This document shows, piece by piece, positions 14,889 through 16,016 of a stretch of 64,000 nt of DNA (position 1 is the first letter of the stretch; each line of letters begins with the position of its first letter). Source of the DNA: Escherichia coli (lineage in GTDB: Bacteria > Pseudomonadota > Gammaproteobacteria > Enterobacterales > Enterobacteriaceae); the NCBI RefSeq assembly GCF_044324785.1, contig NZ_CP172127.1; one strand, 5' to 3'. The position numbers and the translations under genes were made by a program. The notes under the pieces are model-generated. The model did not search any database and was not told the origin of the DNA. It saw only the letters and a program-made list of their open reading frames with translations.

Positions 14889-16016
14889 ATGAAAGTTAAA
14901 GTACTGTCCCTCCTGGTCCCAGCTCTGCTGGTAGCAGGCGCAGCAAACGCTGCTGAAGTTTACAACAAAGACGGCAACAAATTAGATCTGTACGGTAAAG
15001 TAGACGGCCTGCACTATTTCTCTGACGACAAGTCTGTAGATGGCGACCAGACCTACATGCGTCTTGGCTTCAAAGGTGAAACTCAGGTTACTGACCAGCT
15101 GACCGGTTACGGCCAGTGGGAATATCAGATCCAGGGCAACGCTCCGGAAAGCGAAAACAACTCCTGGACCCGTGTGGCATTTGCTGGTCTGAAATTCCAG
15201 GACATCGGTTCTATCGACTATGGTCGTAACTACGGCGTAGTTTACGACGTAACTTCCTGGACCGACGTACTGCCAGAATTCGGTGGCGACACTTACGGTT
15301 CTGACAACTTTATGCAGCAGCGTGGTAACGGCTTCGCGACCTACCGTAACACTGACTTCTTCGGTCTGGTTGATGGCCTGAACTTTGCTGTTCAGTACCA
15401 GGGCCAGAATGGTAGCGTAAGCGGTGAAAATGATCCGGATTTCACTGGTCATGGCATCACCAACAATGGTCGTAAAGCTCTGCGTCAGAACGGCGACGGC
15501 GTTGGCGGATCTATCACTTATGATTACGAAGGCTTTGGTATCGGTGGTGCGATCTCCAGCTCCAAACGTACCTGGGATCAGAACAACACTGGTCTGATCG
15601 GTACTGGCGACCGTGCTGAAACCTACACTGGTGGTCTGAAATACGACGCTAACAACATCTACCTGGCTGCTCAGTACACCCAGACCTACAACGCAACTCG
15701 CGTAGGTTCCCTGGGTTGGGCGAACAAAGCACAGAACTTCGAAGCTGTAGCTCAGTACCAGTTCGACTTCGGTCTGCGTCCGTCTGTAGCCTACCTGCAG
15801 TCTAAAGGTAAAAACCTGGGTGTCATCAAAGGTCGTAACTACGACGACGAAGATATCCTGAAATATGTTGATGTTGGTGCGACCTACTACTTCAACAAAA
15901 ACATGTCCACCTACGTTGACTACAAAATCAACCTGCTGGACGACAACCGCTTCACCCGTGACGCTGGCATCAACACTGATGACATCGTAGCTCTGGGTCT
16001 GGTTTACCAGTTCTAA
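14889..16016 (+). CDS. ompC: Outer membrane porin OmpC, 375 aa
   Basis: [46 protein letters not shown]... and C-terminal ...LGLVYQF. A canonical porin, 8 codons longer than the 367-aa K-12 length I recall. Confidence 0.95.

Follow-up and report, generated by a model that had tools for sequence, protein, structure and literature searches.

A natural OmpC allele of Escherichia coli with a K-12-like pore and altered surface loops

The window analyzed here, a stretch of 64,000 nucleotides from the E. coli contig NZ_CP172127.1 (assembly GCF_044324785.1), carries between micF/rcsD and apbE a chromosomal ompC gene that is longer than the one of K-12. We consider it highly probable (about 0.93) that this is a known natural allele of OmpC, with a K-12-like pore and altered loops, that has spread by recombination. 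The protein would be a trimeric 16-stranded general porin whose channel-forming parts are essentially those of K-12. Its outer surface would then differ because of four additional residues in each of the loops L4 and L7 and because of substitutions in L1, L2, L5, and L8. In terms of loop types, the allele would be L4 b1/L5 a11/L7 g, that is, a porin similar to the one of CFT073 (PDB 2XE1) with a different L7.

Identity, locus, and regulation of the gene

The open reading frame starting with ATG at 14889..16016 (+) has 1128 nt including the stop, i.e., 375 codons plus stop, and encodes the porin OmpC variant WP_024216337.1. The gene of strain N3, with 100% DNA identity, is annotated as “porin OmpC,” and the Pfam profile Porin_1 (PF00267) matches the protein over its full length (E = 1.4e-140, 469 bits, profile positions 1–337 of 337). 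The ompC gene of K-12 MG1655 retrieved for comparison (b2215, NC_000913.3 2311646..2312749) has 1104 nt and codes for 367 residues. This bears out the original prediction, which had set the 375 residues found here against 367 in K-12.

The gene order in the window is rcsD (11477..14149, −), micF (14462..14555, −), ompC, apbE (16128..17183, +), and ada (17257..18321). This order is the same in K-12 and in N3, the window being inverted relative to K-12, where ompC lies between micF/rcsD and ftp(apbE)/ada. The gene is divergent from micF and lies between rcsD and apbE, i.e., in the orthologous position.

The signal peptide (residues 1–21, 14889..14951, +) is identical to that of K-12, with no differences in 21 columns, and the mature chains in PDB start at residue 22 of our protein. 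The C-terminus is LVYQF, which includes the C-terminal aromatic residue and the β-signal YQF. The mature protein of 354 residues aligns without gaps to the crystal structure 2xe1_A (782.7 bits, eight substitutions), and it would thus adopt the 16-stranded β-barrel fold of the solved OmpC structures. Trimer formation and channel activity are likewise expected, given 98% identity to 2XE1 and an identical L3. An AlphaFold2 model built from a shallow alignment of 12 sequences of close relatives had a mean pLDDT of 28 and a pTM of 0.17 and was discarded. For the placement of the loops, we used the published structure-based alignment of Beck et al. (2016) together with the crystal structure of the 98%-identical protein.

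On the opposite strand, a frame of 364 codons with a TTG start is open over most of the gene (14982..16076, −). It probably does not represent a gene. Its most likely origin is the strong codon bias that goes with high expression of ompC, in which few TTA, CTA, and TCA codons leave few antisense stops.

The regulatory elements in the vicinity of the gene are conserved relative to K-12. The small RNA micF (14462..14555, −) is matched in full length by the Rfam model RF00033 (116.8 bits, gathering score 79), and its 5′ antisense part is identical to that of K-12. The 739-nt intergenic region between rcsD and ompC differs from K-12 in ten columns, none of which is inside the OmpR boxes C1–C3 (14709..14772, +) upstream of ompC, and two of which fall within micF, where one base of the terminator stem is substituted and the T/U run has an extra base. 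The expected conservation of micF and of the OmpR boxes therefore holds. There is no difference from K-12 in the entire segment 14709..14803, which spans the boxes and the −35 and −10 hexamers, so that, by sequence, the OmpR-dependent promoter is in place. The boundaries of C2 and C3 and the positions of the −35 (14775..14780) and −10 (14798..14803) hexamers are approximate and follow what we take to be the layout of the ompC promoter. The C1 box of the window was compared with the K-12 C1 duplex sequence quoted in PMC2586830. It is expected that both the basic diffusion function and the regulation by OmpR and micF are unchanged.

Some minor differences surround these elements. Directly 5′ of C1, the GC of K-12 is replaced by CT at 14707–14708, a change common to N3; the site is polymorphic, since in the other carriers of the allele one or both bases are not those of the window. 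In the micF terminator (14468..14490, −), the stem is perfectly paired in the window (CCGGATGC...GCATCCGG) but includes a G-U pair in K-12 (GCATTCGG). The window also has one more base than K-12 in the T run of micF, and its version agrees with the Rfam consensus. Downstream of ompC, the intrinsic terminator (16035..16062, +) consists of a GC-rich hairpin (16035..16054), AAAGGGCC-TGCG-GGCCCTTT, followed by a T run.

Loop differences and the closest known alleles

The K-12 protein (PDB 2J1N) shares with that of the window its locus, regulation, signal peptide, and the loops L3 and L6. Pairwise alignment of the two gives 93% amino acid identity, with gaps of three, one, and four residues on the K-12 side. 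With segment boundaries taken from the structure-based alignment of mature OmpC proteins of Beck et al. (S1 Fig, PMC5056734), the eight extra residues resolve into two length differences of four residues each, in the extracellular loops L4 and L7. The original prediction had placed them in surface loops, and this is where they are; the two proteins are neither equal in length nor different only in the signal peptide.

There are 25 substitutions relative to K-12, and 21 of them are in loops: L1 (two), L2 (three), L4 (seven), L5 (seven), L7 (one), and L8 (one). The remaining four, which are the only differences in the β-strand segments, are conservative (V106I, F109I, L300V, and N365D). Substitutions are thus strongly concentrated in the six variable loops (21/80 alignable positions versus 4/287 elsewhere, Fisher p = 8e-12), and there is no change in the signal peptide, L3, or L6.

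All loops are encoded on the + strand. L1 (residues 45–51, SDDKSVD, 15021..15041) has the substitutions N47D and D49S, and L2 (residues 82–91, 15132..15161) has three substitutions. The constriction loop L3 (residues 115–140, 15231..15308) is identical to that of K-12, without substitutions in 26 columns. L4 (residues 173–199, 15405..15485), which is of Beck type b1, is four residues longer than in K-12 and has seven substitutions; as aligned, the gain consists of three residues around D182–D184 and one at H188, the K-12 side reading GEG---FTS-GV. L5 (residues 227–241, 15567..15611), of type a11, retains the K-12 length with seven substitutions. L7 (residues 309–321, 15813..15851), of type g, is four residues longer and carries G317N; the insert is GVIK (residues 311–314, nt 15819..15830), with NL----GRGYDD on the K-12 side. 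L8 (residues 349–364, 15933..15980) has the single substitution Q354R, and N365D follows it in the last strand.

At the DNA level, the two ompC genes are 91.7% identical, whereas their flanks are at about 98%–99%. The divergence is restricted to 15087..15836, where identity drops to 74%–91%; on both sides of this segment it is about 96%–100%. Pairwise Nei-Gojobori estimates between the window and K-12 give dN = 0.198, dS = 0.43, and dN/dS = 0.46 in the variable loops (a noisy dS, from about 53 synonymous sites), and dN = 0.007, dS = 0.116, and dN/dS = 0.06 in the rest of the gene. The neighboring genes apbE and ada have dS of 0.10 and 0.12. Hence, dS in the loop codons (15021..15980) is roughly four times that of the rest of ompC and of these neighbors, suggesting a much greater age of the loop cassettes than of the surrounding sequence, or their import from outside it.

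Diversifying selection on the loops had been part of the original prediction. In this pairwise comparison with K-12, no dN/dS ratio exceeds 1, either in the loops or elsewhere, and the case for such selection comes from the literature. At synonymous and nonsynonymous sites alike, divergence is far higher in the loops than in the rest of the gene, and it looks like that of old exchanged cassettes rather than that of a recent burst of amino acid changes.

The exact protein, its length class, and its loop types are already catalogued, and nothing in the allele is new. The 375-residue protein is found, under the name “porin OmpC,” on 531 contigs of a public collection, and WP_024216337.1 is annotated in six complete genomes (N3, WP4-S18-ESBL-07, MEI003, O7:H15 ST70, 19KM1831, and AST215). 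Of 5,426 complete E. coli genomes, only one lacks a match to ompC, and the matching records total 5,430. The identity to the window gene is at least 99% in nine of these records, 95%–99% in 263, 90%–95% in 4501, and 80%–90% in 657.

In two evenly spaced samples of these records (59 and 39), the length of ompC ranges from 1092 to 1131 nt (363–376 residues), with nine and ten length classes, respectively. The K-12 length accounts for 26/59 and 18/39 of the records (about 45%), and the 1128 nt of the window, i.e., 375 residues, for 5/59 and 3/39 (about 8%). A similar range is found in the 12-strain panel of Beck et al. (PMC5056734), where mature proteins have 342–355 residues and four strains have 354. 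The window gene does not belong to the K-12-length class, but length polymorphism is normal in OmpC and a protein of 375 residues, or one longer than that of K-12, is not unusual.

The modular nature of these loops is well documented. Beck et al. (2016, PMC5056734) described more than 220 distinct OmpC proteins in E. coli, with modular L4, L5, and L7, for which they list 33, 30, and 13 sequences that occur in many combinations. The loop strings of the window match exactly three entries in their S2 Table: the L4 of type b1, also present in UPEC 536 and CFT073; the L5 of type a11, present in CFT073; and the L7 of type g, for which TA124 is the representative. Their supplementary text, as far as it was searched (possibly without S1 Table), mentions neither WP_024216337.1 nor WP_000865544.1 nor the combination b1/a11/g.

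The OmpC of CFT073 (2XE1, WP_000865543.1; b1/a11/c) has the same precursor length of 375 residues and the same mature length of 354, with 346/354 identical residues. Its L1, L2, L4, and L5 are those of the window. The differences from 2XE1 are F88I, V197I, A199G, V201I, V292I, A293K, Q333R, and A337D. In L7, the window has VIK (type g), whereas CFT073 has VVA (type c, NLGVVAGRNYDD); L8 accounts for Q333R and A337D; and in the barrel the window has a K-12-like β10 (GFGIGGAI) and F88I in β6. The window protein thus has the L4 and the L5 of the CFT073 surface class but not its L7, and because this L7 is of type g the allele is the b1/a11/g combination, not the CFT073 allele.

Among the commoner alleles, the nearest is WP_000865544.1 (found, e.g., in strain LHM10-1), whose gene has 98.8% DNA identity with that of the window. 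It also codes for 375 residues, has identical L1, L2, L4, and L5 as well as I109, and differs by only four residues (L300V, N314K, Q354R, and N365D); its L7 is GVING, as in O157/EC869 (type e), instead of GVIKG. The OmpC of O157:H7, the receptor of phage PP01, likewise has four extra residues at this point of L7, GVIN where the window has GVIK, so that its N306 corresponds to K314. It has a short L4 and 367 residues, eight fewer than the protein of the window.

The allele in different local backgrounds

To place the allele in its context, loci of 17 kb were compared from five genomes in which ompC has 99.7% identity with the window gene (WP4-S18-ESBL-07, O7:H15 ST70, MEI003, 19KM1831, and AST215). 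The ompC DNA is identical among the five, and three synonymous changes (15191, 15413, and 15749) separate it from that of the window and N3. The flanks of these genes are much less homogeneous. They fall into four haplotypes that differ pairwise at 115–175 of the 6427 positions from apbE to mqo (about 2%), and from the window at 133–187 of them. In this five-genome comparison, rcsD differs at 8–32 of 2661 positions, and the neighboring proteins RcsD, ApbE, Ada, AlkB, and YojI have different accessions among the genomes. On either side, differences from the window first occur just beyond the gene and its terminator, at 14707/14708 (left) and at 16034–16079 (right). The same ompC segment, of about 1.4 kb, is therefore present in at least four local backgrounds.

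These data bear on the suggestion that the loop repertoire marks a lineage. If the allele were a vertically inherited marker, its loops would identify one clonal group. The rarity of close relatives fits with this, since only 9 of the 5,430 records reach 99% identity (and 263 are at 95%–99%), as does the exact identity of WP4-S18-ESBL-07 and O7:H15 ST70 in both ompC and flanks. But these two genomes have the same ompC DNA as MEI003, 19KM1831, and AST215, within flanks that diverge to the extent given above, and the window shares ompC with N3 at 100% but differs from it in upstream gene order. Published trees agree with this discordance: ompC evolves as a mosaic, and the OmpC clusters do not follow the lineages of E. 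coli (bioRxiv 10.1101/2021.09.21.461324). As identical genes are found within divergent flanks, the use of the loop repertoire as a lineage marker is not supported, and vertical inheritance within a single clonal group is unlikely.

The preferred reading is that short-patch homologous recombination carries the allele between strains, as shown by identical ompC genes within divergent flanks. That the strains differ in background is judged from 11 kb of these flanks. Recombination of the flanks instead of ompC would give the same pattern and could contribute to it.

N3 is the genome most similar to the window over ompC and downstream of it. There are no differences between the two from 14462 to 16258, and only 3/6427 from apbE to mqo. 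On the other side, they differ at six positions in the intergenic region to the left of 14462 and at ten in rcsD, and farther upstream in gene order. The contrast between full identity over 14462..16258 and the differences to the left of 14462 suggests a recombination boundary inside or beside micF.

Over 16100..28000, N3 (99.8%) is the only close genome among the 5,426 complete ones, all others being at or below 98.2%. Over 30000..54000, N3 is 99.3% identical to the window and the remaining genomes reach at most 98.7%. The lineage of the window is thus poorly represented among these complete E. coli genomes.

Two other features distinguish this region. Between the convergent rcsC (6439..9288, +) and rcsB there are about 1.5 kb of extra DNA (9289..10809), with an ORF matching HTH_28/HTH_Tnp_1 (9349..9879, +) and another with an rve integrase core (9984..10706, +). 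The segment is 98.8% identical to elements annotated as “IS3-like element IS1397 family transposase,” of which some genomes have 7–11 copies, and it is absent from this site in N3, K-12, and the other retrieved loci. IS1397 targets REP/BIME palindromes. Farther upstream, yfaS (11..3733), yfaQ (3734..5383), and yfaP (5388..6164) directly adjoin rcsC, and the atoSCDAEB operon, found at the corresponding position in K-12, is absent from this part of the window (1..6440). N3 has the ato operon directly followed by gyrA, where the window has instead the yfaP-rcsC junction; LHM10-1 has the same junction as the window.

Pore function and surface recognition

An altogether different explanation for the allele would be selection for altered transport through the pore, i.e., that it is a permeability or antibiotic resistance variant. 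Clinical OmpC variants with altered antibiotic transport do exist, and they are the reason why the structures 2XE1–2XE5 were solved. Yet, the constriction loop here does not differ from that of K-12 in any of its 26 columns, which led us to reject a resistance-type porin mutation, and every change in length is on the external surface. Isolates with the allele come from humans as well as from pigs, dogs, wildlife, and the environment, a distribution that does not suggest drug selection. Moreover, the clinical variant studied by Lou et al. superimposes on K-12 OmpC with an r.m.s.d. of 0.44 Å over 340 Cα, with differences mostly in L2, L4, and L5. This explanation is thus very improbable. It is hardly conceivable that the length difference is an artefact of a wrong start, of frameshift or assembly errors, or of the signal peptide. 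The N-terminus and signal peptide do not differ from those of K-12, the gaps all fall in the mature part and, being multiples of three, keep the reading frame, and numerous independent complete genomes contain this 1128-nt gene; there is also a crystal structure for a mature protein of the same 354 residues.

A natural allele altered at its surface would be expected to matter for the agents that bind OmpC from outside, and the published data concern the very loops that vary here. Beck et al. (2016, PMC5056734) found that the OmpC proteins of CFT073 (b1/a11/c) and A35H (b1/a11/e) are not receptors for CdiA-EC536. Recognition was restored by the L5 of 536 or by the L4 of F11, and swaps of L7 and L8 had no effect. 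In 2XE1, the extra histidine of L4 (His167) stacks on Trp208 of L5, and this pair is present in the window protein as H188 and W229. Because the CFT073 and A35H proteins share with it both L4 b1 and L5 a11, the allele is probably not a receptor for CdiA-EC536, and its carriers would then be resistant to CDI-EC536.

For phages, the published evidence centers on L7 and L4. The L7 insertion GVIN of O157 OmpC is necessary for PP01 and is the key determinant of gp38 binding and adsorption. When GVIN is grafted into K-12 OmpC and GFTS is deleted from L4, PP01 plates at the level seen with wild-type O157 OmpC. Alanine substitutions, including N306A, are tolerated by PP01, but deletion of N306 or its replacement by proline is not, which indicates that the shape of the main chain is recognized. 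Conversely, T4 cannot use O157 OmpC, and a phenylalanine in L4 matters for its adsorption. The L7 of the allele is expected to have the length required by gp38 adhesins of the PP01 type. However, it has a lysine at the position equivalent to N306 and the protein has a much longer L4, so that phage susceptibility is not predictable from an L7 of PP01-permissive length. Taken together, the published experiments on these loops suggest that the allele would affect phage receptor specificity, as the original prediction had proposed. These predictions for the receptor are an extrapolation, as the alleles on which they are based have two of the three variable loops in common with this one.

The combination b1/a11/g may also have a receptor phenotype of its own. 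In 2XE1, residues 293 and 337 touch (Ala293–Ala337), and in the window protein K293 and D337 could form a salt bridge between L7 and L8. Together with N314K, the single L7 change that separates it from the much commoner GVING allele, and with Q354R and N365D, this possible bridge might let the cell evade phages or adhesins recognizing the L5/L7 cleft in GVING-type proteins, in which case the recent spread of the allele into unrelated chromosomal backgrounds would represent a selective sweep by recombination. We regard this scenario as tentative and, on balance, rather doubtful.

The finding matters little beyond annotation. It shows those working on phage therapy, contact-dependent inhibition (CDI), or serology which OmpC surface type the strain has, and this type may be useful for predicting the host range of OmpC-dependent T-even phages and the sensitivity to CdiA proteins that target OmpC/OmpF.
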